IMG/VR virus record: IMGVR_UViG_3300049489_000400
Span: 34,718 to 98,717 of that record
Length of the DNA: 64,000 bases
Strand: one strand, 5' to 3'
From: a virus
Shown in pieces: positions 3,900-63,772 of the stretch. The notes beneath the pieces were generated by a model. The model was not told the origin of the DNA. It was given only the letters and a program-made list of their open reading frames with translations, and did not search any database. How positions within the stretch are numbered: position 1 is the first letter of the stretch; each line of letters starts with the position of its first letter. A program made the position numbers and the translations under genes.

Positions 3900-4433
3900 T
3901 TACTTAATCCTACCTTCTTTTATCTTAAAATAGATATTGTTCATTTGTTTTTGAATTATATCTAAATCAACATCTCCAGGTCTAAGCGTCATGCTCAATT
4001 TATCTAGCTTAGTTGACTTGTCTCTAGCAGCCTGATAAATAGAATACATATATTCTTTTTCTTTTTGTATTCTATGCATTTTAGTCCTTTTGACCTTCCA
4101 AATCTTGTCGCACAAAAGTGCACTTTCTACTTCATCGACAGTGGCTCTTTTAACTTTACCCTTCTCATCTGAAGTTTCTAATTCCTCTCTTAACTGATTT
4201 TTTCGTTTTGCCTCATAAATAGACAAATCTAATTTTGCCTGCTGAAACTCATTATCCATATCAGCTGCTAACAAACCTAGTTTATTTACAACTACTGGGA
4301 AGGTTATCAATTCAGCCATAAGATTAGAATAATCAATCTTCAAGATTTTGTCGATGTCTATGTCATTAAAGTCACCAACTTCAAATTTGACTACCTTTTC
4401 GCCAATATTGAATATTAATTCTCTTTGTTTCAT
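3900..4433 (-). CDS. UvsY-like recombination mediator
   Basis: Helical protein with K.T.D.VES-like motif, adjacent to SSB and recA. Confidence 0.55.
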   Translation of the reverse strand: MKQRELIFNIGEKVVKFEVGDFNDIDIDKILKIDYSNLMAELITFPVVVNKLGLLAADMDNEFQQAKLDLSIYEAKRKNQLREELETSDEKGKVKRATVDEVESALLCDKIWKVKRTKMHRIQKEKEYMYSIYQAARDKSTKLDKLSMTLRPGDVDLDIIQKQMNNIYFKIKEGRIK

Positions 4434-4696
4434 TCTATGACTTCTTTCTTGTTAGTATTAAGATTTTCATGAACTTCAATCATTCTATTCAAATAATCTC
4501 TAGCTTTCAATAAATCTGTTAAATTCTTAGCTTTTGTAGAACCAGGTCTTGTAAACCTGTCTAAATATCGCTTTACATTTTCTGAAGCCCAGATGTCTCC
4601 ATAATCAGTACCTTTTCTGTAGTTCAGGGAAATTTGATCAAATTCCTTATCTCCATACTTGGCTCTGTTAGATTTCTCTAATTCATTTACGTCCAT
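4430..4696 (-). CDS. DUF3310-like small protein (putative nucleotide kinase)
   Basis: ENVKRYLDR...K...DLLKARDYL matches the DUF3310 N.IKY..R...K...DL.KA.WYL pattern. Confidence 0.5.
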   Translation of the reverse strand: MDVNELEKSNRAKYGDKEFDQISLNYRKGTDYGDIWASENVKRYLDRFTRPGSTKAKNLTDLLKARDYLNRMIEVHENLNTNKKEVIE

Positions 4697-5283
4697 AACT
4701 CTTTATCTATTATTTCTTGTAAAATCGAAGTGTCCTTACCTTCTAAATAAGGAATCAATTCTTTACAAGAAAGTTTAACTTTCTCTACACAATAAAATTG
4801 TTGATTCAATAATGATGTATTGCCAAGATTTAATTCCTTCTTTAGGTAAAATAACATAGACAACCAGTCAGCCACCTTAACTATTTTCTTAACTAGGAAT
4901 GGGACTGAAGTCATTATGTCAGATAACAATTTTTCAGATTCTCTGTCCTTATTGAATTTAGCATTAACCTTATCTTTTATAATTAAGTCAAGCAAATTTC
5001 TCATTTCTTCACCGTAAGCATTTCCGTATTTCACTCCATGAACTATGTCTCCTGTGAACATCTCATCAAAATCGTGAAATATAGCATAAGTTGTTATTTG
5101 AAGCTTCAAATTTATGTCATCTTCATTCAGGATTTCCTCAGCAAGTAATCTGCTTACCATAGCCACAAAGAATGAATGATGAGCAACAGTTTCGTCTTTG
5201 ATTCTATTCAAACCATTCCATCTGACCATATTGTTAAGTTGGTCAAAATCTGGATCATGAAAAATCTTATCAATTATATTCAT
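4687..5283 (-). CDS. YfbR-like HD-domain 5'-deoxynucleotidase/dNTPase
   Basis: RW...ETVAHHSF...HDFDEMFTGDI...VKVAD motif set. Confidence 0.85.
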   Translation of the reverse strand: MNIIDKIFHDPDFDQLNNMVRWNGLNRIKDETVAHHSFFVAMVSRLLAEEILNEDDINLKLQITTYAIFHDFDEMFTGDIVHGVKYGNAYGEEMRNLLDLIIKDKVNAKFNKDRESEKLLSDIMTSVPFLVKKIVKVADWLSMLFYLKKELNLGNTSLLNQQFYCVEKVKLSCKELIPYLEGKDTSILQEIIDKELWT

Positions 5284-5599
5284 TTGCTAAAATTTCTTGT
5301 TCAATTATACTTAACTCTGCTTCATTAAATTCCTCTAATTCAGCTTCTTGTCTTTTTTCAAATCTCCAAGTAGCAAAAGCTGGTTCTTGCTTTCTGCCTA
5401 TCAATTTTATGAATACAATTGGATTTGAAATTTCTTCCAACAATATACCGACTACAATATCATCGTTATGTAATATTTCTCTGATTGTGTAAATTCTGCC
5501 CTTCTTAACCCAATTTACATACATATTGATAACTGGGAATAGCATCTCCACCTTTATAGAATCATCTACACATAAAACCTTATCACCTACTTCTAACAT
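5270..5599 (-). CDS. hypothetical protein (SH3/YorP-like start, VGDKVLCVDD)
   Basis: 109 aa ORF within the operon. Confidence 0.6.
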   Translation of the reverse strand: MLEVGDKVLCVDDSIKVEMLFPVINMYVNWVKKGRIYTIREILHNDDIVVGILLEEISNPIVFIKLIGRKQEPAFATWRFEKRQEAELEEFNEAELSIIEQEILANEYN

Positions 5600-5603
5600 A
5601 GAA

Positions 5604-8600
5604 TCAATTTATAACTAAGAACTCTGTCCTATTCCTAGTAGAACCTCTTCTTTCACTAATGCTATTCAAAGATTTTCCATATTCCTTTTGATAATTTATC
5701 TCACAATTAACTGCTATCAAAGATTTTTTAGCTTCAAGTTTTTCCATCTTTTCTAAAACACGCTCGTAGCAATCATTCCAAACAGTCAAAATCATAACTA
5801 CATTGTTAGATTCTATAGAAACTCTAGCATAGGGTAATTTGGATTGTTTGTACTTCAAGTGTTTGATATACATTATTCTCCCCACTATTGTAGCTTCTTT
5901 AGGTGATTTTAATTCCTTATAAGATTTCTTATCATATTCCTCAGCAGAAACATAATTCTTGACAAGATTTTTAATCTTGCTTTTCTTTTCATATTTCTGT
6001 AAAAGTGACAGAAAGTTTATATCTCCAAATCCCGTCAATGCCTTTTGTTCTGTTACCCAATACCAGTTTGAATTACTATTCTCGTTTAAAACTTCTGGAT
6101 ATGGCTCCGATTTGGTTAAATTAGCATGAAATTCTAAAAGTGATTTTCTCACTTTCTCTTCATCGATTTTTAGACCATATTGTCCTCCTATATTATCAAA
6201 AGCACCAGCTATAATCAAAGCCTTTACAACTCTTTTGTTTACTTTGTTTTTAGGAACTCTATTTATAAAATCTTCCAAGTCAGAAAAGTCACCATTCTGA
6301 TTTCTTTCGTTCAGTATCACTCTGGCTGCGACATCGCCTACATTTTTGATTTTAGTAAGAGACCAATAAATGCTATTGTCGTCAGGGAAACCAACGAAAA
6401 ATAGGTCAGATTTATTGACACAAGGTGGCTTAATCTGAATATCCGAACCAATCTTTCTTATCTCAGAAATTCTGTTAGGTACTTCCTCTTCATAGTTTGC
6501 AAAATTCAAACTTGCTGTCCAGAACTCTAAAGGATATTTCACCTTCAAATATTGACACCAATATCCCATTAGAGCATAAGCGGCAGCATGAGACCTGTTG
6601 AACCCGTAGCTAGAAAACGCATTCATCTTATCCCATATTTTTACAGCATCTTCCTCTTTATCCCCACCTAGTAAATTATTGTAATATTCAACAAATCTGC
6701 TCTTAAATAAATTAAGATTTTCCTTGTCGAATTTTTTCATATAAGTCCTTACTTGATCAGATTCTGCAAGTGACAAACCTCCAGCGACCACCATCGCCTG
6801 CATAATCTGTTCTTGATAAACATAAAGACCAAATGTATTCTTAGTAACTTCTTTTAAGAATGGATCATAAACAGGCTTTTTCTTTCCATGTTTAATTTCA
6901 GCAAAATCCTTATGTGCATTGGAATCCATTGGGCCAGGTCTAAATAAGGCATTCATTGAAATTAAATCTTCAACACCATCAGGTTTCACTTGTTTAGAAT
7001 ACGTTTTCAATCCTGACGTTCCGAACTGAAAAACATCTTCATTCCATCCGTTTTTGAAAAATTCCATCACGCTTGGAATATCAATTTTTATCTTGTTTAG
7101 ATTTACCTTTTTGCCTCTATTTTTCTTTATCAAATCTAATGTGTTCCTGAACTTATCCAGCTGAGCAATTCCTAATATATCAGCCTTCAAAAATCCAGCA
7201 GCATCGATGAACTTACCTTCCCATTCAGAAACTAATTGGTCATCTATCTTTTTAACAGGCATCCAATCATATATAGTCATAGGATTCCCTGATTTATCCT
7301 GCTTAGGAACAATCAGTACCGCAGACGCATGTATGGAAGATGTTTTAGGTTGATTGATAGAAATTCTAACTAAATCACAAACTTCAGCATTATTCTGAAC
7401 GAACTTTTTCAGCACAGGTTTTTCAACTGCATTTTCAAATATATCACCCCAAGAACTTTTACCGATAACATCAGGTATTTCCTTAGTGGCAAAATTTGCA
7501 TCTTGAAAAGAAACTCCAGAAACCCTAGAAAAATCTTTCAAAGCTGACTTGACTTTCATTCTAGCATAAGTACCAATAGAACAAACATTGTTATAAGTAT
7601 ATTTTTCTTCAATATATCTTTTAACATCACCTCTTCTCAACCCTTCAAAATCTATATCAATATCAGGCAATGCATCCGCTGACTTAGCACGCTCTCCTGA
7701 AACCCTCGTCTTGTTCAAAAAACGCTCAAATAGTAGATTGTATTGAATAGGGTCTATTTCTATAATCCCCAGAAGATAGGCTACCAAAGAACCTCCTGCC
7801 GAACCCCTACCAGGACCAACTAGAATATCTTTTGTTTTGCACCATTCAACAATATCCCATAATATCAAGAAATAATCAACGAATCCCGCACCTACAATTA
7901 CACTATTTTCTTCTTCAAGTCTTTCGTAATATTGTATTATTTTATCCTCATCATCTGGGAACTTGTCAATGACCTTTCTTTGAAAACCTTTTTCTAATAA
8001 TTCATGATATAAAGACTCTGAATCTGGATGTTCAAACTTAGGCAATTTATGATTACCAGTATCTATCATATAGTCGCACTTTTCGGCAATTTCTACAGTA
8101 TTTGAAACAGATTCTAGTATTAAATCAAACTTATCAGGATTCTTTGAAAAATGAGGCATTAATTTATCTAAAGTCTCATCTATTGTTTTGTAATATTGAT
8201 CACTAGATGACAATTGAGTTTTCTTATCTACCTTATTAAGAACAGATTTGATTTTGTAATCAGATTTTTCGATGTAATAAGAATCGTTAATCAAAACAGG
8301 CTTCAATACATCACTATAATTATCCATATAGTATCTGATATTTCTAAGATTTTGTATATCAACAGAATCGTCATCGAACTCAACAGAATCTATCTGATAA
8401 TACAAATCTCCTTTAAAAATCTTTTTGTATTTTTTAATCATTTTTCTACCAATGTCATTTTTGATATTGGAATTAAAATAACTATCTGTAGGTATGACAC
8501 ATATCAATCCTTCAGAATGATTCAAGAAGTCCTCTTCAGAAACAAATTTGTCATTGTCTACATTTATGAATTTACCAATTCTTAATAGGTTTTTCCAACC

Positions 8601-9203
8601 TATTTCATTTTTTACAAATAGCTTTATATCGAATAAAGAATGGTGTTCATCATCCTGATTATATTCGTAAGCTACTGATATTGTTTCTCCAAGGATAGAT
8701 TTTACACCCTTCTTTTTACAAGCTAATTGAAAAGGTAAAGTTGCAGCTAATGTATTTTTATCAGACAGACCTAAAATCTTCTGACCTAAGAAAACTGTTT
8801 TAGCTACCCACTGTTCTGGTTCTGCTGAGCCGTTTAATAACTCGTATCCAGTATGGACTCCTAAGTGGATAAAATCTATTTCCAAATCTGAATCGTACGA
8901 ACCAACATTTATGAATTCTTTGAACTCTGGGATAAAAATATCTTCATTGTATTCATCCTTCTTTGTCTTTTTAGAAGAATAATAGAACTTGTCTCCCCAC
9001 TTAAATAATATGTGAGTAATATCTTCCTCATAGATTCTGTAGAACTCTTCTTCAGTAAGAATGAAGGAAAAATCATTCGATATGACCTTTCCTTCTTTCT
9101 CTTCTACAAAAACTAATTTCCCAAGTCCTTCTATTTCTACAATATTCCCTTCAATATTGCATTTTATAGATTTTTGTTCAATCCAGTTTTTTAATTCTTT
9201 CAT
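5604..9203 (-). CDS. dnaE: DNA polymerase III alpha subunit (family C)
   Basis: PHP domain HLGVHT, GPGRGSAGGSLVAY, LLFERFLN, catalytic PDIDIDF, K.DILG, YQEQIM, YGFNRSHAAAY. Confidence 0.97.
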   Translation of the reverse strand: MKELKNWIEQKSIKCNIEGNIVEIEGLGKLVFVEEKEGKVISNDFSFILTEEEFYRIYEEDITHILFKWGDKFYYSSKKTKKDEYNEDIFIPEFKEFINVGSYDSDLEIDFIHLGVHTGYELLNGSAEPEQWVAKTVFLGQKILGLSDKNTLAATLPFQLACKKKGVKSILGETISVAYEYNQDDEHHSLFDIKLFVKNEIGWKNLLRIGKFINVDNDKFVSEEDFLNHSEGLICVIPTDSYFNSNIKNDIGRKMIKKYKKIFKGDLYYQIDSVEFDDDSVDIQNLRNIRYYMDNYSDVLKPVLINDSYYIEKSDYKIKSVLNKVDKKTQLSSSDQYYKTIDETLDKLMPHFSKNPDKFDLILESVSNTVEIAEKCDYMIDTGNHKLPKFEHPDSESLYHELLEKGFQRKVIDKFPDDEDKIIQYYERLEEENSVIVGAGFVDYFLILWDIVEWCKTKDILVGPGRGSAGGSLVAYLLGIIEIDPIQYNLLFERFLNKTRVSGERAKSADALPDIDIDFEGLRRGDVKRYIEEKYTYNNVCSIGTYARMKVKSALKDFSRVSGVSFQDANFATKEIPDVIGKSSWGDIFENAVEKPVLKKFVQNNAEVCDLVRISINQPKTSSIHASAVLIVPKQDKSGNPMTIYDWMPVKKIDDQLVSEWEGKFIDAAGFLKADILGIAQLDKFRNTLDLIKKNRGKKVNLNKIKIDIPSVMEFFKNGWNEDVFQFGTSGLKTYSKQVKPDGVEDLISMNALFRPGPMDSNAHKDFAEIKHGKKKPVYDPFLKEVTKNTFGLYVYQEQIMQAMVVAGGLSLAESDQVRTYMKKFDKENLNLFKSRFVEYYNNLLGGDKEEDAVKIWDKMNAFSSYGFNRSHAAAYALMGYWCQYLKVKYPLEFWTASLNFANYEEEVPNRISEIRKIGSDIQIKPPCVNKSDLFFVGFPDDNSIYWSLTKIKNVGDVAARVILNERNQNGDFSDLEDFINRVPKNKVNKRVVKALIIAGAFDNIGGQYGLKIDEEKVRKSLLEFHANLTKSEPYPEVLNENSNSNWYWVTEQKALTGFGDINFLSLLQKYEKKSKIKNLVKNYVSAEEYDKKSYKELKSPKEATIVGRIMYIKHLKYKQSKLPYARVSIESNNVVMILTVWNDCYERVLEKMEKLEAKKSLIAVNCEINYQKEYGKSLNSISERRGSTRNRTEFLVIN

Positions 9204-10393
9204 TACATTTTTCCAATTGGAGAAGTCAAATTAACAGAAACTATCTCTTTGTCTTTAACCTTAGAAGCAAAGAAATTAACAGCTAATGCTATTATATCTA
9301 ACGATGGGTAAAAGTTAGAAAGATTAGATATTTTGTCAATCGTTTTCCACTTGTCTGAGTCAGTTCTCGAAGTCGATTTGTATTCTACATACATCATCAA
9401 AAGATCATAAACCAAATGAAGATATTTTGAGAAATGCATCAATGTTTGCTCTTCTGTTTCTGTTATTCTTTTTCCAGACTTTATTGAGTCTATGATCATG
9501 CTAAGGAAATAATCTACCTCTGCTAATCTAGGTTCAATTGATTCTGAATCGAAATTCATATCCATTCTTGCTGGAACAAATACATCGTACAAATCTTCAA
9601 ACTGACCATTACTCAACTGAACCTCATCATACATTTTCCAAGCAATAGGATTATCATTATATATATGAAGACTTTGAGAATTGTGAGTTTGAGTGCCTAA
9701 CTCAATACCTAAAATGTTAGCCATAATTTCAGTCAAGAAACTGAATTGGAAAACATTAGTGGGTAAACCCCAATGTAAATCATTACTTCTGTTAGAAATA
9801 GTCGTTCTCAATTTTCCATTTCTGATTTTCAAGAATACCATATCGTTACAAGGCAAATCCTTAGATTTAGTTCCTAAGTCCAAATCTGCATTCCAAATCT
9901 GCATAACTGCTCTTCTGGTTTCAGAATCTTTATGAAGGTCTTTTAGGGTCTGAAGAATCTGATCAACACCTTTATTCATTTGCTCTACTGCGTGACCATT
10001 ATTCTCTGGTGAGGTAGGTAAAGTCCTATCGAAAGAGGAAACACCATGTTTTCTCAGTCTAAACCCATATGGAGCATGGAAATTAACCCCATCGTCAGAA
10101 TAATTCTTCATATTAGAATTGAAGATATCAAGAAATGCTACATCTTTCTCTCCTTTGAAAATCCAAATAGCTTCAGCAAGAAGGAAAAATATGTTTATAT
10201 CTCTACCATTGTTTCCTACACAACGTCTGTACGGATTAGTGATTGTTGTCTTGAAGTCTATAATTTCTTTAGTATCCCCATTTCTGCTCTCTACAGAATC
10301 TCCATTCTCAATAACGTACTTGTTTATGAAAGGATAAGTTGAAGAGAAATTACTTGTCACAACAGAATCATTAATAATATTTTTCAAAGTCAT
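9203..10393 (-). CDS. thymidylate synthase-family protein, probable dUMP hydroxymethylase
   Basis: SRNG.TKE, YGFRL, TRRAVMQIW, catalytic DLPCN, RSNDLHWGLPTN (Asn indicates dUMP specificity), SLHIY; C-terminal extension. Confidence 0.85.
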   Translation of the reverse strand: MTLKNIINDSVVTSNFSSTYPFINKYVIENGDSVESRNGDTKEIIDFKTTITNPYRRCVGNNGRDINIFFLLAEAIWIFKGEKDVAFLDIFNSNMKNYSDDGVNFHAPYGFRLRKHGVSSFDRTLPTSPENNGHAVEQMNKGVDQILQTLKDLHKDSETRRAVMQIWNADLDLGTKSKDLPCNDMVFLKIRNGKLRTTISNRSNDLHWGLPTNVFQFSFLTEIMANILGIELGTQTHNSQSLHIYNDNPIAWKMYDEVQLSNGQFEDLYDVFVPARMDMNFDSESIEPRLAEVDYFLSMIIDSIKSGKRITETEEQTLMHFSKYLHLVYDLLMMYVEYKSTSRTDSDKWKTIDKISNLSNFYPSLDIIALAVNFFASKVKDKEIVSVNLTSPIGKM

Positions 10394-10424
10394 AATAAAG
10401 ATTTTTATTTTTAGTAACTATGCG

Positions 10425-10451
10425 AAAAAGGCACCCAATCGAGTGCCTTTT
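10425..10451 (-). terminator. rho-independent terminator
   Basis: Minus strand AAAAGGCACTCGATTGGGTGCCTTTTT. Confidence 0.75.
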
Positions 10452-10470
10452 ACAAATCTTAAAAGTATTA

Positions 10471-11484: not shown

Positions 11485-11560
11485 AGCACTTTACAATTTA
11501 AAAATTAAAAATTATTCCTTGTTATTTGTTCTATTTAACTTTGTTAGAAACAATTATACA

Positions 11561-11620
11561 GCTAAATTAGAAACTATTTTTTACTCTACAAAATTTTTTC
11601 CAAATTATTTTTGAAAAATT
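11561..11620 (-). promoter_or_regulatory. Bacteroidota-type (-33/-7) early promoter, copy 1
   Basis: Minus strand AAAAATAATTTGGAAAAAATTTTG-19 nt-TAATTTAGC; near-identical copy at 12502-12561. Confidence 0.65.
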
Positions 11621-12462: not shown

Positions 12463-12501
12463 AATTTACAGTTTAATAGTTTACAATAATAAAATTCTAA
12501 A

Positions 12502-43585: not shown

Positions 43586-43595
43586 TAATATCTGT
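43586..43595 (-). promoter_or_regulatory. putative late promoter ACAGATATTA upstream of MCP
   Basis: The same CAGNTATTA motif recurs 19-52 nt upstream of eight other structural-region genes. Confidence 0.55.
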
Positions 43596-45537: not shown

Positions 45538-47814
45538 TTATTTTTTACGAACAAGACACTTACTTCTATTTATAATTACGGCAAAATCTGTATTCCCACC
45601 CCAACCATTCTTTTGAATAATAGCATCATAACCCTTTATTGCAGCATAGAATCCTCTTGCTTCACCACCTGTCCTACTAGCTATATCAGCCATTATCTTA
45701 CTAACACTAGAACTTCCATTTGTTTTAACCTTATTGAGCTCATGTGTTATTTTGTCTAATATGTCTTTGTTTTCTTTGATTTCATTTTTGATATCAATCA
45801 TTTCTTTGCTAGACTTCTTATCAGATGTTATTCTCTCTTTAATTGTGTCGTTTATTTTAGCGAAATGATTTTGAACAAGATGTTCATTCAAATACTTATA
45901 GTGAAGATTGTAAGCTATGTGTTGAGAATTTTTCAATTTCATATCACTTCTTTGCGCTATACCTTCATTCAATATAAATTTCTCAGTAGTATGAGGCAAT
46001 GTTATTTCATAAGTTTGATTGTTTATTTTTTTAACATCTCCTGCTAATTTTTTAACTATTCCTGTGTAATATTCTACAGCTTTGCTAAATTTGTTCTTTT
46101 TCAAGTCAGCTAACTTTTCATAAGAATAATTCCCTGGTAAGCCTTGAACATTATTCAATTCATCGAAAGTGTCTTCATCCCATCCCATTTTCTCTTTAGT
46201 GGTTTGTTCGATTTTCTTTTCGATTTCATCTTGTTTCTTTTCTAAATCGTAAACTGTTTGTTTTGCGTCATCATATTTATTTTTGAGTTCCTTGAATTCA
46301 GAACCAAAAAATTCTTCAGACATCATAGAATCTAATTCGTCTGTATAGATAACCTTTGCATCTGAAGGTATGCATATATCCATAACGCCAGTATCTTTAT
46401 AACCAGCGTATTCGTATGCTATTTGGTAATCGTGATTTGGTGGTGGAGGATTTTTCTTAGGCTTGTTTACAGCGCCATAAATACCTGCACCATACATACC
46501 TACTCTACCATAAAAGCAGTCTTCATTTTCAGTAAAGTCCTTTAGAAGTTCTTGAGCTGTTCTTCCATTGAATCCTTGAACACCTCTATTAACCATAAAT
46601 GCCCCATCTTCAGAAATAGCCTTTTCAAAAGTCTGATCATCTACTTCAGTAGCAACTTTGTCAAAACCTCTTAATTTACAAATATTTGATAAGAAGTTCC
46701 AACCGTGAGTATTATCACTGTTCCACATACCTCCAGCGTCAGACAATGCCTTTTCCATCTCTTTTTCGCTTAATTCTCGGTATGGGTCTTTAGATTCGTC
46801 TAAATCCTCCAATCTGAGTTCTAAACTAGCGAATCTATTATGCATTTTCAAATTCAAATCATCATCCTCAATCATAGACAAAATAATGTCTTTCTTTTTA
46901 AGGATTTTTTTGATTTGTTTATTTATGTCTTTCTGAGTCAGTCCAGAAGTCATTTGTATGTTATTGGAAACCATAGATTCCAATTCATTAACCTCATCTT
47001 CAAAATGATTACCCTTATCTCTACCTTGAGCAGAAAACCTTAAAGAACCGCCATTATCTACACGATAAATTTTACCATCGTCCTTATTGATAAGTATATT
47101 GTCATTCTTGTATGCATCCCAATTAGCCAAAAGACAATCAGCTACGAAATTATTCAATATATCCTTACGAATATCATCTGTAAGATTTGAATTAGCAACC
47201 TCCGTATTAGGCATATACTCAGATAAGATGAGTGATCCAGATTTTGACTTGTAAAGTTTCATATTTGGAACACTTATTCCTAAGCAGGAATATATGGAAT
47301 TAGCAAGATATTCTTCTTCAACATGAGCTGCTGAAGCACCTTTTTTCATTACGTACTCCTTACCAGTATTCTTGTCTTTAACAAGTTGAGCACCAGTAGA
47401 ACCTCCTAAAGATTTAACTATCTCAATATCTGATAGACTCGGAAAATTTTCTGTATCAAAGAAGTCTTCTGGGCTTGCTGATTTACTGGATGAATCTTTC
47501 TTGTCCTTGTTTACAACTTTTCTCCAATCTAGTTTTCCAGAAGGGGTCATCTTAACAACATAAGTTATTCCGTTCTTAACTTTCGTTTGACCTAGTTGTA
47601 ATGCTTTCATTAATTCTTGATCAGGAATTAAACCGTTCAAGGAATCGTGAAAAGTTTTTGATTTGATAATTTCATAATTATCATCTGGAGAAAAGTTGAT
47701 TGCTTTCGAGAAATTATCAAAAGCATTAATCAACGTTTCGTCATCTACCTCTCCTTTGAAATTAGCTACCGCTACAACATTGAGAGACTTTTTCAATCTT
47801 TCAAAATTGTCCAT
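45538..47814 (-). CDS. HipA/PI3K-like protein kinase fused to an ADP-ribosyltransferase-like domain
   Basis: Kinase: LGGSTGA, YVMKK, EYLAN.IY, LLANWD..NDNIL, RVDNGGSL. ART: VNRGV, GMYGAGIY, AYEYA, GYDAI. Confidence 0.7.
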   Translation of the reverse strand: MDNFERLKKSLNVVAVANFKGEVDDETLINAFDNFSKAINFSPDDNYEIIKSKTFHDSLNGLIPDQELMKALQLGQTKVKNGITYVVKMTPSGKLDWRKVVNKDKKDSSSKSASPEDFFDTENFPSLSDIEIVKSLGGSTGAQLVKDKNTGKEYVMKKGASAAHVEEEYLANSIYSCLGISVPNMKLYKSKSGSLILSEYMPNTEVANSNLTDDIRKDILNNFVADCLLANWDAYKNDNILINKDDGKIYRVDNGGSLRFSAQGRDKGNHFEDEVNELESMVSNNIQMTSGLTQKDINKQIKKILKKKDIILSMIEDDDLNLKMHNRFASLELRLEDLDESKDPYRELSEKEMEKALSDAGGMWNSDNTHGWNFLSNICKLRGFDKVATEVDDQTFEKAISEDGAFMVNRGVQGFNGRTAQELLKDFTENEDCFYGRVGMYGAGIYGAVNKPKKNPPPPNHDYQIAYEYAGYKDTGVMDICIPSDAKVIYTDELDSMMSEEFFGSEFKELKNKYDDAKQTVYDLEKKQDEIEKKIEQTTKEKMGWDEDTFDELNNVQGLPGNYSYEKLADLKKNKFSKAVEYYTGIVKKLAGDVKKINNQTYEITLPHTTEKFILNEGIAQRSDMKLKNSQHIAYNLHYKYLNEHLVQNHFAKINDTIKERITSDKKSSKEMIDIKNEIKENKDILDKITHELNKVKTNGSSSVSKIMADIASRTGGEARGFYAAIKGYDAIIQKNGWGGNTDFAVIINRSKCLVRKK

Positions 47815-49259
47815 TATTTAAGCAAATCAAGTGTCTCTAAAGCCTTTTCTAAACTCATTCCAATCTCTGGTTTGATACCTTTCACTATGAATTTTTCAAC
47901 TTCTTTTTCCCAATCTTCTTCGTCACCGAAAAGCATTTTACCCATAACAGGGTCATCTTGAATCATCTTGTTAGCATTATCAATACTTCTCTTAGTTTCG
48001 ATAGCTTCTTTGAATGTTCTAGTGTTGAATTTTTGAGGGTCTATACTGTCAATATTATCGGCAAGTATCTTGAATACAGCATCTCTCTCTTTTATATCCT
48101 CCTGTTTGTCATCCAATCTAGGAACTCCAGTAAAGTTCATTTGATGCTTCAACTTGTCTACAAAATGAAGTTTTTCTCTTTTTGTAAATTGTATATCTTT
48201 TTTGATGGCTCTCGAATAGATTGCATTCATATGTTCATCTTTCGTAAAGTCGTCTTGATTCATGTTTGTAATCAAAAGAATCTGGCCAGTAAACTCAAAA
48301 GGATCAACATTTGAAGCTTTGTTTGTACTTTTCTTACCAACTATCCTTTTACCAGAAGACGCAGTTGCCTTCTTGAACAAACCTCTAATTTCAGGATTCT
48401 TTATAACCATATCCGAATCATCGAATACGATAGTTTTACCATTATGTTCTTGAAGTAATTTTGCAAACTGAGGAACTGAGTCAACTTCTGGAGCCTCAAA
48501 ATAGTCGTAATCGCCATCACCTGGTTGGTCTGTCTCTGGATCAAAAGGTTTTTTACCCATATACTTAGCCACAGCGTGGAAGTTATAAGACTTACCTACC
48601 CCAGCACCTCCAGAAGCAATCATCAATGGAGAACCTCCCTTTAAAAACTGCGCATACGTCTTATTCAAGACAGTAACCTCTTTTTCAGGTGGCTGGTAAT
48701 CAGGGTCATTTATTTTAAGATTATGTATATAATCATCCATTTCAATACGGTCTTTCTTAGTCTTTCCGTTATTGAATTTCTTTTTGATGTTATCTACATC
48801 TTGCCAGTTTTTAGCTTCATCCTCGTCAGAATCTGTATTCTTAGAAGTTGGTGCTGCAGGTGGTTTTTTACCATCTCCATCTCCAAACATTTCTTTTGCT
48901 TGTTTCATTTTTCCTGTATTCAGGTCAATGTCTGAAACATCTTCTCCACGCTCTTTCAACTCGTCATAAGCCATCTGTCTAAGACTTGGATCATTGTTTG
49001 GATTAGTTGCAAATGAAACTAATTTATCATTAGTTGTTTTCTTCAAATGTGCTTGAAGCTTCCCAGCTTTAGTAGTTGGAGTCTGTTCTTCATCGTCACC
49101 TCCTGAATCAGGCTTAGAATCTTTATTTGAAGAACCGGTTGATTTAACCTTTCGCCAGTCAAATTTACCACTAGAAAGTTGAGTCCACACTCTAGTTATA
49201 CCATCTTTACCGACTTTGGTTTCTCCAACCTGTCTAGCCTTCTCAATATTTTTGTTCAT
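47814..49259 (-). CDS. AAA-type ATPase with shared N-terminal module
   Basis: Walker A SGGAGVGKS, Walker B IVFDDSD, ITN sensor, AIYSR arginine finger. Confidence 0.8.
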   Translation of the reverse strand: MNKNIEKARQVGETKVGKDGITRVWTQLSSGKFDWRKVKSTGSSNKDSKPDSGGDDEEQTPTTKAGKLQAHLKKTTNDKLVSFATNPNNDPSLRQMAYDELKERGEDVSDIDLNTGKMKQAKEMFGDGDGKKPPAAPTSKNTDSDEDEAKNWQDVDNIKKKFNNGKTKKDRIEMDDYIHNLKINDPDYQPPEKEVTVLNKTYAQFLKGGSPLMIASGGAGVGKSYNFHAVAKYMGKKPFDPETDQPGDGDYDYFEAPEVDSVPQFAKLLQEHNGKTIVFDDSDMVIKNPEIRGLFKKATASSGKRIVGKKSTNKASNVDPFEFTGQILLITNMNQDDFTKDEHMNAIYSRAIKKDIQFTKREKLHFVDKLKHQMNFTGVPRLDDKQEDIKERDAVFKILADNIDSIDPQKFNTRTFKEAIETKRSIDNANKMIQDDPVMGKMLFGDEEDWEKEVEKFIVKGIKPEIGMSLEKALETLDLLK

Positions 49260-49294: not shown

Positions 49295-49304
49295 TAATAT
49301 CTGT
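49295..49304 (-). promoter_or_regulatory. putative late promoter ACAGATATTA
   Basis: Recurrent motif 36 nt upstream of the ATPase ATG. Confidence 0.5.
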
Positions 49305-50734
49305 TATTCAGTCCAATCTATTGGAAGTTCTACGTTGAAAAATTTAGTCATTACTTCTTCTGAATCTTTCAAAACCTTAGCTGAATTTTTACCCACTTCT
49401 AATTCTTTCAATCTGTTTTTATAGAATGCGATATCAATTACATCTTGCATATTATTTATTGGATCAAATAACATTTTAGCTAATCTGAAATTATGCTTAA
49501 CATCTTTTCTATATTGCTCATCTGACATTTTTTTAGCCTTATTCAAAGCCTCAGCGAATTGTTTAGGTGTTGCATCCCAAGGTATGAATATAGCTTTCAA
49601 TTCATCGTAAATTATGTCATCTATTTTACCCTTTTGTTTAACAAGACCTTTTGTGTCTCTCAAAACTGGATATGAACCGTTTATTATGGCTTCTATGGTG
49701 AAACCATTAAGGTGAGTATTTGAATATTGCGCATAATGTTTACTGAATGATGGGTCAATACAAAATTTAGAATTTTGCTGCATAAAATAAACATCGGAAC
49801 TTGACATGAATCCTTGATGCTCTAATCCGTACATTTCGGCTCTCTCCCAAAGACTCATACCTATATGCTCATCTAAACAATCAGGGTCAGTCTTTTTACT
49901 AACCATATATCTAGGTTTTTGTTTACCTCCTTCAGCGTCAGCCATCATATAATAAAGTTCTATCCCAGAACCAGCTGTAAATACAGTACTGCCCTTTTTC
50001 AAATGAGGAGTCATGGCTAATATGTCTTCCATCTTTTTCATAGATTTGAAAACATGAGCAGCGAAAAAATCAACTGGTCTTTCAGACATAGCCTTATAAG
50101 GTAATTTATCAGGCATATATCTTGAAGCGAAATTCAAGTATCTAGGAATAGCAATATTTTCACAACAATTATAGGCTGATGTATGTACACAGTCTAGGTA
50201 AGTTATTTTAGGTGCTAAATATCTAACCCAGCTTGTTCTAATGTCGTAATATCCGTCATGAACAGCAAAAACTTGTTTTATCCTTTTAGGTAAATCGAAA
50301 AATTTTGGCCAATCATGAAATCCTTTAGCTTCTTTAGTTTTAGTAGGCATAAAACTCCAAAACAATAAATCCGCATCCATTACAGCTTCATGCCATAATT
50401 CTAAAGCATTTTCTGCAAAAACAGGAATACGATTTGTATATGGAGGAAGAAACCAACCATAATAGGAATTTTTCCAGTAACCAGTAACTTCTGATTTCTC
50501 AAAACCTCCGTGTTGACTCTTATTGCTTTGTTTCGCTTGGAATACACCATCTTCAAATTCTTTTATTCTACGATGATATAAATCGACTGATATAGTCTTA
50601 TTATAAGTCAAAAATATAATGTCGACATCATGTCCCATTTCTTTAAAAGCCTTGACACGACCTTCAACATTTTGAACTATACCGCCATACTTTGCGACAT
50701 CAAAAGTACAAATTCTAATCTTTAACTTTTTCAT
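49304..50734 (-). CDS. GT-B fold glycosyltransferase
   Basis: YGGI...GHDVDII N-terminus, K.ME, G.G.E, FTIEAI..G..PV; ATG start at 50734. Confidence 0.8.
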   Translation of the reverse strand: MKKLKIRICTFDVAKYGGIVQNVEGRVKAFKEMGHDVDIIFLTYNKTISVDLYHRRIKEFEDGVFQAKQSNKSQHGGFEKSEVTGYWKNSYYGWFLPPYTNRIPVFAENALELWHEAVMDADLLFWSFMPTKTKEAKGFHDWPKFFDLPKRIKQVFAVHDGYYDIRTSWVRYLAPKITYLDCVHTSAYNCCENIAIPRYLNFASRYMPDKLPYKAMSERPVDFFAAHVFKSMKKMEDILAMTPHLKKGSTVFTAGSGIELYYMMADAEGGKQKPRYMVSKKTDPDCLDEHIGMSLWERAEMYGLEHQGFMSSSDVYFMQQNSKFCIDPSFSKHYAQYSNTHLNGFTIEAIINGSYPVLRDTKGLVKQKGKIDDIIYDELKAIFIPWDATPKQFAEALNKAKKMSDEQYRKDVKHNFRLAKMLFDPINNMQDVIDIAFYKNRLKELEVGKNSAKVLKDSEEVMTKFFNVELPIDWTE

Positions 50735-51401
50735 AATACTCTTCTGGTAACATCTTCTTAATATAACCCTGCTCAAAGAACAATAATGAACTTTGGGATT
50801 TATAGAAGTCCTTTACAAATTGAAATTTATTCGCTCCATCCTCTTCTTTGAGTCCTGTCAATTCATGAACTTGTTTCAACTTGAATTCAGAATTAGTTAA
50901 GCCTACAAAATACTCTTTATTTCTTCTTTTGTATGAATGAGGGAAATCACGGTAGAATAAGTGTGAGTGTTTTTCAGTTAAATTTCTAACTAACCAATGA
51001 AATGGATGACCTACTCCTAAACAAGTTACAATCAAGAATCCATCATCTGACAATACTTCAAGAATCCCATCTAATTCTGAAGCTAGTTTCAGCATTTTAT
51101 TTTCTCCTATTTTCATAAGGCAAAAACTCATAGCTGAATCATCCGACATCAGTTTTTTATCAGAATAGTATTCTTTATGAAAATTTTCAGAACTTACTTT
51201 AGTCCTAAGAGTGAAAAGCTCCATGTCGAACTCTTCGCAAAGTAATCTGTCTTCTTCAAGTCTTTTTTCGTTGTACTCTACGGTCAACATTATAACTTGA
51301 TCATATTTGTCTCTTTCTTTCAAGAAGTTAGCCGCACTAAAGATGATATCATCTGAATGGGGCTGAATCAAAAGCAAATTTCGCTTTTTATTTTTAGCCA
51401 T
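50715..51401 (-). CDS. PIG-L/LmbE-family de-N-acetylase
   Basis: LLIQPHSDD, R..ED, GVGHPFH, FYRDFPHS, YKSQ. Confidence 0.8.
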   Translation of the reverse strand: MAKNKKRNLLLIQPHSDDIIFSAANFLKERDKYDQVIMLTVEYNEKRLEEDRLLCEEFDMELFTLRTKVSSENFHKEYYSDKKLMSDDSAMSFCLMKIGENKMLKLASELDGILEVLSDDGFLIVTCLGVGHPFHWLVRNLTEKHSHLFYRDFPHSYKRRNKEYFVGLTNSEFKLKQVHELTGLKEEDGANKFQFVKDFYKSQSSLLFFEQGYIKKMLPEEYYEKVKD

Positions 51402-51411: not shown

Positions 51412-52314
51412 TTACGGTGTTATAGTAACTTTAACCTTGGAAGTTCTTTTTACTCCTTGAGTATTTCTTTTAATTACAAATCTCTTCAAGTCATCATCCC
51501 ATTCGCTATTTTCAGGAACCACATGAAGTATAGACCTTGCCCAAGGGTGAGCTGGGCCAACAACTGGTTCTTGATCTTTCTTTCCTATGTTATTACCATT
51601 AGCAATCAAGTCCTTTAATTTATATATTATCGGCTTTTCACCTGGAACCCCATAATTTTTTAAACACTGTTTGCAAACTCCTGGGAACGTCTGTTTGTAA
51701 ACTTGAGCGTCATCTCCATAATCTTCAAGTATTTGTTGCGCTCTTCCAAACCCATATGCTTCTTGAAGTATATAATTTGATATCCTGGAAAAATCTCTGG
51801 CCCAGTCTTCAGTAATTCTTTTCAATTCAGATGCTAGCCAAGCTTGACTTTTTCGGTCTTTGAAAGCCTTGATAGATTCTGTTTTGATTTTATCAGCAAT
51901 TTCCAATCTCTGCTTTTGATTAGCCATCAAAATTGTATTAGAAAAATTATTAGCAACTTTGTTTCCTAGACCAGATAAATCAATGAATGCTCTATTTTTT
52001 AAATGGTCTAGTCCAGCCTTTTGAGAAATACTCTTAGGTTGATTTAATCTTTTAGTAAACCATTTGTCGAATATCTTATTGTTTACTTTGTATGACTTAT
52101 TTCCACCTAAAGATTGAGCCATCATTCCGAAATAATAGGACTTGTCTATTTCAGACATAACATCTTCAAAATCTTCTGTATTTATACCTAATGCTTGCAA
52201 CATTATTATGTCTGAAGGAGACAAATACTCTAGTCCTAATTGACTACCGATAAATACAGCTTGATTTCTCTTGATAATGTCTATCATCTGCCATATTTGC
52301 TCCAATGTAAACAT
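51412..52314 (-). CDS. MuF-like minor head (morphogenesis) protein
   Basis: DW.RD..RI, CKQC, P.HPW.RS (variant of HP.CRC). Confidence 0.7.
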   Translation of the reverse strand: MFTLEQIWQMIDIIKRNQAVFIGSQLGLEYLSPSDIIMLQALGINTEDFEDVMSEIDKSYYFGMMAQSLGGNKSYKVNNKIFDKWFTKRLNQPKSISQKAGLDHLKNRAFIDLSGLGNKVANNFSNTILMANQKQRLEIADKIKTESIKAFKDRKSQAWLASELKRITEDWARDFSRISNYILQEAYGFGRAQQILEDYGDDAQVYKQTFPGVCKQCLKNYGVPGEKPIIYKLKDLIANGNNIGKKDQEPVVGPAHPWARSILHVVPENSEWDDDLKRFVIKRNTQGVKRTSKVKVTITP

Positions 52315-54448: not shown

Positions 54449-54510
54449 CGGTTTATTTCTTTTTTATGAAATAATACCTGTGGATGCTATCAAATCTAAC
54501 TTGTAGAATA

Positions 54511-54855: not shown

Positions 54856-54858
54856 ATT

Positions 54859-57474: not shown

Positions 57475-57485
57475 GTTTTAATTTA

Positions 57486-59015: not shown

Positions 59016-59020
59016 ATCTT

Positions 59021-60616
59021 TTATTTAATTAAATTAGACATAAATGACTTAACAAATGGATTCTCTTCTTCTGAATCTGAGTCATCCCAATTCAAGAAAG
59101 GATTAGTTCCATCATCGTCATTGTTCGTTGGGATTCCGCCACCTGCTAATCCAGCTTCCTGCTGTGCTTGCATAGAAAGTTGTTGAGCGTAAGTAGGATT
59201 GAGTATTAAATCCCCACCTTTAACAGGGTCTAATCCGTATTTACTTCTTATCTCGTTAACTGTTTGGAAGTTAGACAATTTCTTGATTTCAATATCAAGT
59301 TCCTCTTGAATTGTCAATCCATTCAGACCAACAAAATGGAACTCATATTCAGGATCAATTTGAGTAACTACATACTTGTTCATTTTTCTCTGAATGAACT
59401 TCAATAGTGGATACAATCCTTTATCTTTAGAATGTTTTAATCTTTGTTCGTTACTACCTTCGAACATAGAAGAACTCCCCTGACCAGCACTAATGTTAAA
59501 TCCAATTTCGTTAGGGTCTATAGCATAAATAGCACAAGCAATTTTTATCAAGTATTCAGACCAGCTTCCATACTCCATATCTCGGTTTGATTTTTGTAAA
59601 TCAATCCAATCTATATCAGCATCTACAATCGGTGTTTTCCAAGATTGCTGCACGCCAGTAACCATAGACAACCACTCTTGTCTAAAAGCCTTTAATTGTT
59701 TCTCATTAACATTACCTTTTACTCTCAATAAACCTTTAGGAGCAGAACCCTGACTAAAGAATCTCTTGTTATATTCTTCAGCCCATAACATAGAAGTCAC
59801 AGTACTTACTAATTCCTCTAATTCAGAACAACCATAACCTACGTTATAAAGATTTGAAGATGGATTTCTAACACCAAAGCAAAGTTCCCAAGGGTAAAAA
59901 TCAGCAGTTACAGAACCTTGATAAATTTGAACAAATGATGGGTAATATCCTTTAACCATTTCTTTGTCTTCTTTATCGTACTCATCATCATCATATGAAT
60001 CGGCAACTCTATAAGTAGATGCATCTGTAGCAAAGAACTCAAACAATTTACCTCTTCTGTCCCTAACTACCTCAAATGTCATTTGATCATAAGTCAAACT
60101 GTCATCTACAATTTTTCTTATAAATGATTCAAAGTCGTCACCCTCCCAAGAGTTGTTAATACCGCAGTTTAAAACTATCTCTGTTATCTCTTCGATTCTA
60201 CGCCACTCTTCAGTAGTATTTTCCCTGTCCTTCTCACCTAATCTCTTTTTCTTACGAATAACGAATCCAGTTGAGTAACGGTCAGCCTGCGGCTCAGCAA
60301 AGTCAGCAATCTGATTCTTTCTAGTTTTTAAAATAGCATTAATAATCGGTGTTTTAGACATTCTTTTCAAAGTCTGATAAGACAGAGAAAATGGCTTATC
60401 CTTATAACCGAAACTATTTTGAAAATCTAAAGGGTCAATTATGTAACTCTTTTTGTTACCCTCTTTTCTTTCTTCTATATTCTCAAGAACTTTTTGAGCA
60501 CGTAAAATATCGTTGGGTGAATTAGACGACAAAGCCTTCTCCAGAACAAGACCTTTTTTTAGTTCAAGCTTGTTCTGAAGAAGTTCTAATTTGTCTATTT
60601 TATTTGCGTAACCCAT
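59021..60616 (-). CDS. portal protein (Herelleviridae-like)
   Basis: INAI..TR.NQI, DSLTYDQ, VRNP...GYG.SELE, FFSQG..PKGLL, DMEY, IDP.EIG, TVNEIR. Confidence 0.92.
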   Translation of the reverse strand: MGYANKIDKLELLQNKLELKKGLVLEKALSSNSPNDILRAQKVLENIEERKEGNKKSYIIDPLDFQNSFGYKDKPFSLSYQTLKRMSKTPIINAILKTRKNQIADFAEPQADRYSTGFVIRKKKRLGEKDRENTTEEWRRIEEITEIVLNCGINNSWEGDDFESFIRKIVDDSLTYDQMTFEVVRDRRGKLFEFFATDASTYRVADSYDDDEYDKEDKEMVKGYYPSFVQIYQGSVTADFYPWELCFGVRNPSSNLYNVGYGCSELEELVSTVTSMLWAEEYNKRFFSQGSAPKGLLRVKGNVNEKQLKAFRQEWLSMVTGVQQSWKTPIVDADIDWIDLQKSNRDMEYGSWSEYLIKIACAIYAIDPNEIGFNISAGQGSSSMFEGSNEQRLKHSKDKGLYPLLKFIQRKMNKYVVTQIDPEYEFHFVGLNGLTIQEELDIEIKKLSNFQTVNEIRSKYGLDPVKGGDLILNPTYAQQLSMQAQQEAGLAGGGIPTNNDDDGTNPFLNWDDSDSEEENPFVKSFMSNLIK

Positions 60617-60650
60617 TTAAATCGTCTTATTTTAATAAAGATTATTTCTG

Positions 60651-62369: not shown

Positions 62370-62392
62370 ATCAGATTTTTTACTAAATAAGA

Positions 62393-62707
62393 TTAGGCTG
62401 CATCAAGAATAACGTCATCATTGAAAACATCAATAACAACATATAAACCTTCTCCAACCAAAGTGAAGTAATCAATCAAGTCTTTCTCTGTAAGAGTCAA
62501 ACCTATTTCGATAGGACAAGATGTTCCTGTTCCTGCTAATGCATTAATTTTGTTTGCAATAGCATTTGAAGAATCTTTAGTATCAAAATTTGAAACTACA
62601 AATTCTTTTTCTTTAGTACAAACAACTCTTATTTCCAATTCCGTTCCTGCGTCTGGTCCAGAGTTGATTTTCACCTTGTATAATCTAGTTCCTGAATTTG
62701 ATTTCAT
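62393..62707 (-). CDS. hypothetical protein
   Basis: 104 aa preceded by the ACAGCTATTA motif. Confidence 0.6.
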   Translation of the reverse strand: MKSNSGTRLYKVKINSGPDAGTELEIRVVCTKEKEFVVSNFDTKDSSNAIANKINALAGTGTSCPIEIGLTLTEKDLIDYFTLVGEGLYVVIDVFNDDVILDAA

Positions 62708-62758
62708 AACATTTAAATTTTAGTAAATATTTACTGTAATAATAGCTGTTTATTTAAA

Positions 62759-63772
62759 TCAAGAGTTTGGTTCAAACTTACTTCTCTGTTTGCCTAAACC
62801 TACCTTCATCTTCCAATACTTACTAAACTCACACAACCACATTTCTATCTGATGTAGCGTGAGTTCTCCAGATTTCTTAACTTCGTATCTACTCAAATTT
62901 TTATTCCAATGTAAATACTTAAAATCGCCATATTCCTTTAATTTCTTCTTTGCTATATCAGTTAAAATATGAATAGCATCTTCTTGCTCCTTACCTACTA
63001 ATGCTGGGAATATCAACCTAACTCCTAAACTCGCACCTGGGCCAACATTCGTATAATCGTTCTGATCAAACTTCATAATTTCGATTCCAGAATATCTAGG
63101 AGCATATGTAAAATCTTGATAAAATTCATGAGCAATAAATTGAGCAACGCCTGGTATAGTTCTAAAGAACGAAACTATTTGCTCTGGGTCTTCAGAATTT
63201 AAACACAATTTGTTTATCTTCTTAATGTTAGAATGTATCATAGGAACTGTAACGAAGCAATAACATTCATCCCTAGTTCCTTTTGCGAATGTAGAATTTA
63301 TGTAATAAGCATTCGTAAAAGGGCTTTCACCAGTACTTCTAAATTCTGATACTAAATCAAAAAATTCTTGTTTATCGAATTTGTAATATGAAGGCATTTT
63401 ACCTTTGAAGGATTTAGATTTAACTGAGCCTATAAAATCAAAAAGTTCAGGCTTGTTAAAAATCCTGAACAATAACAGCTTCCATATTATCTCTAATCGG
63501 TCTTTTTCTTTCAATAATACATTTTGTATTTGCCACTGAGAATGTCTGTCTAATTCTCTGTAAACATTCGTGAACTTATTTCTTTGGAAAATTTTATCTT
63601 TAGACCAAGGTTGATTTTCCTTCAATATGAATCTCTTATGCCAGACTTCTTGTCTGTCGAACATAGTCTCAAAGAATAAATCTAAATTTTCCTCACAAAT
63701 GTCTAAATCAGTTGAGGGCAAAAGATGCCCCCAACTCTTCTTATCTAATCTATTTTGCTTTTCGGAACTCAT
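62759..63772 (-). CDS. aGPT-Pplase1 / amino acid:DNA transferase-like DNA base-modification enzyme
   Basis: PWSKDKIF..NKFTNVYRELDR, LFRIFN, FTNAY, NVGPGA..G, IEMWLCEFSKY. Confidence 0.85.
   Translation of the reverse strand: MSSEKQNRLDKKSWGHLLPSTDLDICEENLDLFFETMFDRQEVWHKRFILKENQPWSKDKIFQRNKFTNVYRELDRHSQWQIQNVLLKEKDRLEIIWKLLLFRIFNKPELFDFIGSVKSKSFKGKMPSYYKFDKQEFFDLVSEFRSTGESPFTNAYYINSTFAKGTRDECYCFVTVPMIHSNIKKINKLCLNSEDPEQIVSFFRTIPGVAQFIAHEFYQDFTYAPRYSGIEIMKFDQNDYTNVGPGASLGVRLIFPALVGKEQEDAIHILTDIAKKKLKEYGDFKYLHWNKNLSRYEVKKSGELTLHQIEMWLCEFSKYWKMKVGLGKQRSKFEPNS

Follow-up and report, generated by a model that had tools for sequence, protein, structure and literature searches.

How might a phage that seems to place 5-hydroxymethyldeoxyuridine (hmdU) in its DNA elaborate this base further when no 5-hmdU DNA kinase is found in its genome? 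To our knowledge, the characterised thymidine hypermodification pathways all use such a kinase. The question is raised by IMG/VR record IMGVR_UViG_3300049489_000400, a phage contig of 98,717 bp whose bases 34718-98717 (64,000 nucleotides) are referred to below as the window. An initial annotation of the window had described a dispersed, possibly new pathway, in which amino-acid:DNA transferase (AADT) chemistry was combined with glycosylation and de-N-acetylation. This outline was retained in part: AADT chemistry could not be established, and hmdU synthesis, a glycosyltransferase (GT)/deacetylase pair and DNA as a likely acceptor were supported. On balance, we favour a route in which hmdU in DNA would be glycosylated with an N-acetylhexosamine (HexNAc) and then de-N-acetylated, giving an amino-sugar base. 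The genes considered for this pathway were all confirmed at the following coordinates:

9203..10393, minus strand: dUMP hydroxymethylase (thymidylate synthase homologue, 396 aa; PF00303, phrog_5131, SPO1 gp29-like)
4687..5283, minus strand: HD-domain YfbR-like deoxynucleotidase (PF12917, phrog_7076)
49304..50734, minus strand: GT-B glycosyltransferase, 476 aa, candidate DNA hmU glycosyltransferase (AlphaFold model, Foldseek, VIA-align)
50715..51401, minus strand: LmbE/PIG-L-type de-N-acetylase, 228 aa (AlphaFold model, motifs)
62759..63775, minus strand: stand-alone aGPT-Pplase clade 1 protein, hereafter aGPT-Pplase1 (PF18723, named HMUDK_hel in current Pfam)

Synthesis of the hydroxymethylated base was the part of the pathway most firmly anchored in known enzymes. 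The protein encoded at 9203-10393 matched PF00303 (E 4e-24; 85.6 bits, cut-off 24.3) and phrog_5131 (E 6e-75), and its best tblastn matches were the known dUMP hydroxymethylases of SPO1 (gp29), SP8, SP82G and SP10, at ~40% identity. It was aligned with E. coli ThyA, from which the numbering is taken, SPO1 gp29, SP10 gp188 and the YungSlug enzyme. The nucleophile C146, the dUMP-selecting N177 and D169 were invariant and kept in the window protein, which also displayed an aspartate at the position of the water-excluding L143 of ThyA, as did the SPO1, SP10 and YungSlug enzymes. Loss of L143 to an acidic residue and the state of D169 are the residue criteria of PMC13326640; according to the latter, a protein that has kept D169 is no 5-hydroxycytosine synthase. 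The hydroxymethylase named in the initial annotation was thereby confirmed by domain match, closest homologues and residue signature. Its assignment to the SPO1 type, and with it the predicted synthesis of hmdU, is well supported, and given these gene identities it is very likely that dUMP would be converted to hmdUMP and hmdU incorporated at replication.

Two further genes were found beside it:

5604..9203, minus strand: DnaE-type DNA polymerase III alpha (PF07733 at 3e-64, PF17657, PF14579, PF02811)
4430..4696, minus strand: 88-aa protein with weak likeness to T7 gp1.7/DUF3310 nucleotide kinases (phrog_236)

Base 9203 is common to the hydroxymethylase stop and the DnaE start, overlapping genes then follow, and hydroxymethylase, DnaE and HD nucleotidase together form one tight gene block. 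Comparisons were made with two sets of genomes, all kin within one phage family: 23 near-complete genomes found via the GT and 13 further ones found via aGPT-Pplase1. The HD protein was kept in 35 of these 36 relatives. It matched PF12917 (E 1.6e-19) and phrog_7076, annotated as dATP triphosphohydrolase (E 1e-21), in agreement with its earlier naming as an HD nucleotidase, and it probably removes thymidine nucleotides from the pool. The adjoining gene at 4430-4696, previously called DUF3310-like, kept this designation at the level of motifs and of a weak match to phrog_236 'nucleotide kinase' (E 1e-4 across 46 residues); Pfam DUF3310 itself gave no match.

Which enzymes, then, could act on hmdU once it is in DNA? 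The best candidates were the GT and PIG-L proteins, both with homologues numbering in the hundreds, on contigs 90-127 kb long. The GT open reading frame (ORF) spans 49304-50776, the likely start being the ATG at 50734; the PIG-L and GT genes overlap, and the pair is translationally coupled. Neither window protein matched Pfam or PHROG, and single-sequence searches of the PDB with both proteins, as well as a search with the GT family profile, returned nothing. The best Pfam score of the window GT was 15 bits for Glyco_transf_5, below the cut-off of 22.7, and weak matches to Glyco_transf_5 and Glycos_transf_1 were displayed by 20 and seven of 28 GT family members, respectively. The two folds were recognised in AlphaFold models (pLDDT 91.3 for the GT, built on the family alignment, and 94.3 for PIG-L), and the pair described in the initial annotation proved real.

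The GT model displayed two Rossmann-like domains typical of the GT-B fold. At least 500 GT-B structures of the PDB were matched with E < 1e-3, and Z scores to GT-B enzymes ranged from 19 to 25 across ~300-347 residues. The nearest solved structure was T4 alpha-glucosyltransferase (AGT), at 13-14% identity: it ranked first in Foldseek (E 2.4e-11) and occupied ranks 1-5 in VIA-align (Z 24.1-24.7, rmsd 3.8-4.0, 342-347 residues aligned), followed by TarM (Z 23.8), HepE (23.0), PimA (22.6) and BshA (~21). Among viral models (BFVD), annotated DNA alpha-GTs and two GTs of phage SP-15 were near the top.

The PIG-L model displayed the LmbE fold, with 2x9l, 6iiy, 3dff and 3dfi as top Foldseek matches (E 2e-8 to 2.5e-7, TM ~0.6). 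The nearest folds were the teicoplanin GlcNAc deacetylases Orf2*/Dbv21, followed by BC1534, MshB and BshB. Compared with the PDB, the family profile retrieved 3dfi (E 1.4e-3), both motifs being aligned to the catalytic motifs of Dbv21. These motifs, of the HxDD and HxxH types, read PHSDD (P14, H15, D17, D18) and GHPFH (H132, P133, H135) and were invariant in 27 sequences. PF02585 was not matched by the window protein at E up to 0.01 and has a precomputed match in the homologue P0174. Pairs of a GT4 enzyme and an LmbE-type enzyme (MshA/MshB, BshA/BshB, PIG-A/PIG-L) add N-acetylglucosamine (GlcNAc) and then deacetylate it. The coupling of the GT to an LmbE-type deacetylase likewise implies an N-acetyl sugar that is later deacetylated. 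A search of INPHARED detected no GT homologue, whether the window protein or either of two distant homologues served as query, so that no cultured phage in that collection is known to carry the gene set. Distant GT-B homologues fell into roughly 200 clusters; pattern scans with the distant GT homologues P0251 and P0271 yielded no relatives.

The surroundings of the pair were compared over 76 related loci. The neighbouring genes are:

51412..52314, minus strand: MuF/SPP1 gp7-like minor head protein, upstream flank (ESM Atlas, synteny)
47814..49259, minus strand: NrdC.10-like AAA ATPase with a disordered N-terminus, downstream flank (phrog_1250, E 4.7e-15)
45538-47814: 758-aa protein, directly after the cassette
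59021-60616: portal, head module
43595-45091: protease, head module
42047-43534: capsid, head module

The order MuF-like protein, PIG-L, GT, AAA ATPase, 758-aa protein was conserved over these loci. PIG-L preceded and adjoined the GT in 72 of the 76, a few having a mobile gene in between, and synteny extended to the MuF-like flank in 65, to the AAA flank in 64 and to the 758-aa protein in 58. The MuF-like protein itself was identified through an ESM Atlas lead, Phage_Mu_F being annotated on 15% of the members of one matching cluster. GIY-YIG homing endonucleases were found between PIG-L and GT at L038:2315-3004 (Pfam-confirmed) and L073:2327-3004 (motif-level), and before PIG-L at L013:1680-2294 (motif-level).

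The co-occurrence suggested for these genes across related phages was found in one set of relatives and was incomplete in the other. All 23 genomes retrieved via the GT carried aGPT-Pplase1 and PIG-L, and 22 carried the thymidylate synthase homologue; the gene combination is no chance assortment. Strict coupling of GT-B with aGPT-Pplase1 was rejected, since 12 of the 13 relatives retrieved via aGPT-Pplase1 lacked GT-B; these retained a PIG-L-like gene and the hydroxymethylase. Ten such genomes with the cassette were retrieved, and in all ten the GT-B gene was missing between PIG-L and AAA. Two of them were scanned with Pfam and displayed in the GT-B slot a TET-associated glycosyltransferase (TAGT) of 269-307 aa (PF20691, E ~2e-13, above the cut-off), and a family search located TAGT at this position in ten of ten sister genomes; one sister-lineage TAGT lies at L166:3199-4122. 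TAGT is a family of DNA-sugar transferases, and phage T6 has a TAGT in place of the T4 beta-GT (PMC13390438). The sister genomes also contained a radical SAM/SPASM enzyme between MuF and PIG-L; radical SAM genes were carried by 20 of the 36 relatives, mostly at the cassette and including GT-B lineages. A DNA N6/N4 methylase (PF01555, E 2.7e-18) had entered the cassette of relative G010; in one genome, the methylase lies between the radical SAM gene and GT-B (L033:2297-3004). In relative G004, a TAGT gene overlapped the start of aGPT-Pplase1 by 4 nt. The exchange for TAGT, the insertions of radical SAM and methylase genes and the overlap in G004 mark the cassette as a DNA-modification (insertion) hotspot and tie aGPT-Pplase1 to DNA glycosylation. 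Neither TAGT (PF20691) nor a radical SAM enzyme was found in the window's genome; with these absent and its PIG-L motifs intact, it represents the minimal form, consisting of GT-B and a deacetylase that looks active.

This fixed place in a late structural and DNA-modification cassette, in which TAGT displaces GT-B, also bears on the idea that the pair might make a small-molecule or envelope glycoconjugate, such as a bacillithiol-like glucosamine (GlcN) conjugate or a surface glycan, with an auxiliary metabolic or superinfection-exclusion function. BshA/BshB and MshA/MshB were indeed among the structural matches of both proteins, but neither protein belongs to those families at the sequence level, and the RmlC-like gene, which might hint at surface sugars, is unique to this genome. 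Such a function is considered very improbable. The RmlC-like gene encodes a dTDP-4-dehydrorhamnose 3,5-epimerase (PF00908, E 6e-54) at L004:11276-11821, corresponding to genome positions 28276-28821, upstream of the window. It was rejected as a member of the pathway; no further rhamnose-pathway genes turned up among the ORFs scanned and, being absent from all 36 relatives, it looks like a recent accessory acquisition.

Does the phage then use AADT chemistry at all? The protein at 62759-63775 had been presented as an aGPT-Pplase1/AADT, and the first of these names was upheld: it matched PF18723 (E 4e-48; 164.6 bits, cut-off 25) with residues 30-325 covering profile positions 3-276 of 281, and its homologue in phage Nachito is annotated as 'aGPT-pyrophosphorylase clade 1'. 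It aligned to residues 315-597 of SP10 gp186, i.e. the C-terminal, non-kinase half, and also matched YungSlug. The experimentally proven amino-acid:DNA transferases M6 gp51, ViI gp247 and PhiW-14 gp109 belong to clade 2 (PMC8989533), which corresponds to Pfam ADDT (PF18724). The window protein matched PF18723 alone, and PF18724 was absent from the whole genome and from 36 of 36 relatives. With a clade 1 protein present and clade 2 absent, AADT chemistry is not established for this phage. From its context, aGPT-Pplase1 may be viewed as a conserved DNA-directed partner of the other enzymes.

The 5-hmdU DNA kinase predicted to lie elsewhere in the genome was not recovered. PF18748 gave no match in the complete 98.7-kb genome at E up to 10, nor in 28 of 28 relatives tested (the 23 and five more). 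As a positive control, the same search detected the kinase in YungSlug, where it is a separate gene two genes upstream of aGPT-Pplase1, and in SP10, where it is part of a fusion (gp186). A six-frame search of the circularised genome with a hidden Markov model (HMM) of the YungSlug and SP10 kinases found nothing better than E 0.08, and SP10 gp186 matched the genome in tblastn solely via its C-terminal domain. On these results the expected kinase was rejected. The genome is circularly closed and complete: CheckV gave 100% completeness, the contig ends have nine bases in common, and an ORF across them (window 63750-64000 plus L003:1-250, minus strand) reads in frame, so that no part is missing. 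The product of this ORF (~165 aa) combines a segment of the signal or transmembrane type with a lysin motif like that of glucosaminidases.

Two proteins were considered as kinase candidates in their own right. A P-loop protein of 324 aa (L003:1027-2001), whose gene lies four genes upstream of that for aGPT-Pplase1, displayed no similarity to the YungSlug kinase and was rejected as an AAA ATPase like T4 NrdC.10. It is one of two paralogues of this family (phrog_1250) in the genome, the other being the AAA flank of the cassette, and its best cultured match was in Ralstonia phage RP13 (39%), which is reported to have highly modified DNA and aGPT-Pplase1 without a kinase (PMC13697223). The 758-aa protein behind the cassette displayed, by eye, motifs like those of PI3K/HipA (a glycine loop, VMK, DNIL and VDNGG). 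It had no Pfam, PHROG or PDB match and was not accepted as a kinase on a motif-level resemblance; it may be a packaged effector or, as a speculation, stand in for the missing kinase.

The 758-aa protein and the two AAA ATPases would be the candidates if a hidden, non-homologous kinase phosphorylated hmdU and aGPT-Pplase1 then added an amine or an amino acid, with glycosylation proceeding in parallel to a doubly modified T. This scheme is compatible with a glycosylated and deacetylated hmdU. It is in keeping with the presence of aGPT-Pplase1 in every relative found via the GT and with its closest homologues, in SP10 and YungSlug, working beside a 5-hmdU DNA kinase (5-HMUDK); the kinase-like 758-aa protein, moreover, follows the cassette. 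The negative kinase searches and the assignment of the 324-aa protein to an AAA family speak against it, as does the lack of Pfam or PDB support for the 758-aa protein. In addition, phages RP13, EP_H11 and IME92 possess aGPT-Pplase1 without a detectable kinase (PMC13697223). A hidden kinase is therefore regarded as rather unlikely.

Several observations weigh against a glycosylated and deacetylated hmdU as the product of the pair. The lead of T4 AGT over TarM was less than one Z unit, other GT4 enzymes came close behind, and the AGT-family Pfam was matched by none of the 28 GT family members at E up to 0.1. The gene co-occurrence lies within one phage family, so the pattern shows a conserved core and is no independent evidence. 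The reading does not account for an aGPT-Pplase1 without a kinase. The genomes of this family were assembled out of ordinary metagenomes, from which it follows that the modification is no sequencing block of the YerA41 type. In a sub-lineage that includes the TAGT genomes (L166-L175, L080, L065), the PIG-L-like motifs read PHAGD, GHPFN and FPYSY; one catalytic aspartate and one metal-binding histidine are lost, yet the protein is conserved. The same altered motifs were found in members of this sub-lineage that still have a 40%-identical GT-B. Deacetylase chemistry has probably been lost from this protein and selection on it retained, so in some lineages it may have a role other than that of a deacetylase.

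The position of the cassette is a further point of this kind. It lies inside the head-morphogenesis module, between the MuF-like protein and probable packaged proteins, where glycosylation of virion proteins would fit too. GT-B and PIG-L could then place an amino sugar on capsid, portal-associated or ejected proteins, unrelated to hmdU, and the DNA would contain plain or aGPT-Pplase1-modified hmdU. In mycobacteriophages, phage GTs are known to glycosylate the virion. This possibility draws on the neighbourhood of portal, MuF-like protein, protease and capsid, and on the protein O-GlcNAc transferases SdgB and GtfA and on TarM, which are nearly as similar to the GT as is T4 AGT. It fits less well with a TAGT, a DNA methylase and radical SAM enzymes in the same slot or cassette of relatives, or with the translational coupling of TAGT to aGPT-Pplase1 in G004. 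The cultured relatives are also at odds with it. The closest by capsid protein are Bacteroides phage DAC19 (48%) and Chryseobacterium phage MA9V-3 (41%); both have a homologous head module, and searches of the two detected no GT, aGPT-Pplase1, kinase or SPO1-type hydroxymethylase, MA9V-3 having a canonical ThyA. They thus possess neither the pair nor the hmdU genes. Glycosylation of virion proteins by the pair is accordingly judged unlikely. DNA is the most likely sugar acceptor because TAGT occupies the same slot, because methylase and radical SAM genes are inserted there and because T4 AGT is the top structural match; the overlap in G004 and the absence of GT, aGPT-Pplase1 and SPO1-type hydroxymethylase from DAC19 and MA9V-3 point in the same direction.

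For a sugar on hmdU in DNA, the genes identified here, their folds and motifs, and their synteny and distribution among relatives can be assembled into the following route, in which acceptor, sugar, order of steps and biological effect are our interpretation. The SPO1-type hydroxymethylase, expressed in its block with DnaE and the HD nucleotidase, would make 5-hydroxymethyl-dUMP. The HD nucleotidase would deplete thymidine nucleotides, so that hmdU could take the place of T at replication. After replication, the GT-B enzyme would attach a HexNAc to the oxygen of the 5-hydroxymethyl group of hmdU, the most likely sugar being GlcNAc with UDP-GlcNAc as donor; phage GTs placing GlcNAc on 5-hydroxymethylcytosine (5hmC) are documented (PMC8256090). 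By analogy with MshA/B, BshA/B and PIG-A/L, the LmbE/PIG-L enzyme would then strip the acetyl group and leave a protonatable amino sugar on the base. Such a base should protect the DNA from restriction enzymes and offset part of its charge inside the capsid. The route would require no 5-hmdU DNA kinase, and none appears to be encoded. aGPT-Pplase1 would act on the same DNA. A more specific version, in which virion DNA contains 5-(glucosaminyl-oxymethyl)uracil and aGPT-Pplase1 performs a new reaction on (glycosylated) hmdU that needs no phosphate leaving group, is a tentative suggestion and improbable in all its parts together.

The genome has a GC content of ~33%, nearly all its genes lie on the minus strand, and its capsid protein is of the SPO1/Herelleviridae type. 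The proximity of DAC19 and MA9V-3 by capsid protein suggests a host in Bacteroidota. Genes in the upstream part of the genome include those for a DnaJ-domain protein (L003:16387-17070), a collagen-repeat protein (L003:2915-4012) and a fragment of an I-HmuI-like NUMOD homing endonuclease (L003:13045-13689). I-HmuI is the intron endonuclease of the hmU phages SPO1 and SP82. Among the relatives, G030 (IMGVR_UViG_3300029572_000001, 199,131 bp; loci L115 and L125) contained each marker gene twice, ~100 kb apart, and probably represents two related phages assembled head to tail as a dimer.

The gene set is core to a large and widespread family of uncultured phages with genomes of ~90-125 kb, probably infecting Bacteroidota. 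If the more specific version given above is true, it would be a third, kinase-independent route of thymidine hypermodification, in which GT-B/TAGT, radical SAM and methylase modules are interchangeable. A cationic sugar base would be relevant to how phages escape restriction and CRISPR and pack DNA into the capsid, and to the performance of metagenomic sequencing and nanopore base-calling on genomes of this kind. The enzymes might provide new tools for glycosylating and deacetylating DNA, and the system offers a handle on the function of clade 1 aGPT-Pplases, which are kinase-less in RP13-like phages too. In the searchable literature, no LmbE/PIG-L enzyme was found linked to DNA hypermodification, nor any route to an hmU amino sugar by transfer and deacetylation without a 5-hmdU DNA kinase; 5-(glucosaminyl-oxymethyl)uracil, if true, would be a free-amine amino-sugar base without a described counterpart.

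Glycosylated hydroxymethyl pyrimidines in phage DNA are a known strategy, and the proposed pathway resembles several known systems in its parts. MshA/MshB, BshA/BshB, PIG-A/PIG-L and the teicoplanin deacetylases share with it a GT-B enzyme and, after it, a zinc deacetylase of the LmbE fold that bears the HxDD and HxxH motifs; their acceptors are inositol, malate, phosphatidylinositol and a glycopeptide, whereas the context suggests DNA here, and identity is 10-20%. In base J of kinetoplastids (beta-D-glucosyl-hydroxymethyluracil), hmU is made on DNA by a JBP dioxygenase and glucose is added by the GT-A enzyme JGT. In both systems, the hydroxymethyl group of hmU in DNA would bear a sugar, but base J involves neither an amino sugar nor a deacetylase.

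Closer in several respects are the T-even phages (T4 gp42 and alpha-/beta-glucosyltransferases; T6 TAGT), in which a hydroxymethyl pyrimidine made by a thymidylate synthase-family enzyme is incorporated and then glycosylated by a GT-B enzyme. T4 AGT is the top structural match of the GT, and GT-B and TAGT are exchanged at one locus as between T4 and T6 (PMC13390438). In contrast to the T-even system, the base here would be uracil (N177 is kept), sequence membership in the AGT family is lacking, an LmbE-type deacetylase is present and the genes lie in the head module. The 5-HMUDK/AADT pathway of M6, ViI, PaMx11, PhiW-14 and SP10 (PMC8989533, PMC5889632) likewise combines an SPO1-type hydroxymethylase with a member of the aGPT-Pplase superfamily, and the closest homologues of both window proteins are in SP10-like Bacillus phages. 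Unlike that pathway, the genome analysed here has sugar enzymes instead of a kinase, a clade 2 transferase and a radical SAM enzyme; the ORFs scanned yielded no pyridoxal phosphate (PLP) enzyme and no recognisable tailoring enzyme of another kind.

SP-15, YerA41, Carin-5 and RP13 (PMC12686479, PMC13697223) differ from the window's phage in having a family A polymerase fused to a uracil-DNA glycosylase (UDG), a long linker and a large glycan that blocks sequencing, whereas here a DnaE polymerase, a single GT with an LmbE-type enzyme and ordinary metagenome assembly were found. The Carin-5 cluster contains GTs together with a putative GlcNAc deacetylase, which is of the polysaccharide-deacetylase type (PMC12686479). 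These phages and the one described here would have in common a T-directed modification with sugars, GlcNAc included; the SP-15 GTs rank high among the viral structural matches of the GT, and RP13, EP_H11 and IME92 share with the window's phage an aGPT-Pplase1 that is not accompanied by a detectable kinase.

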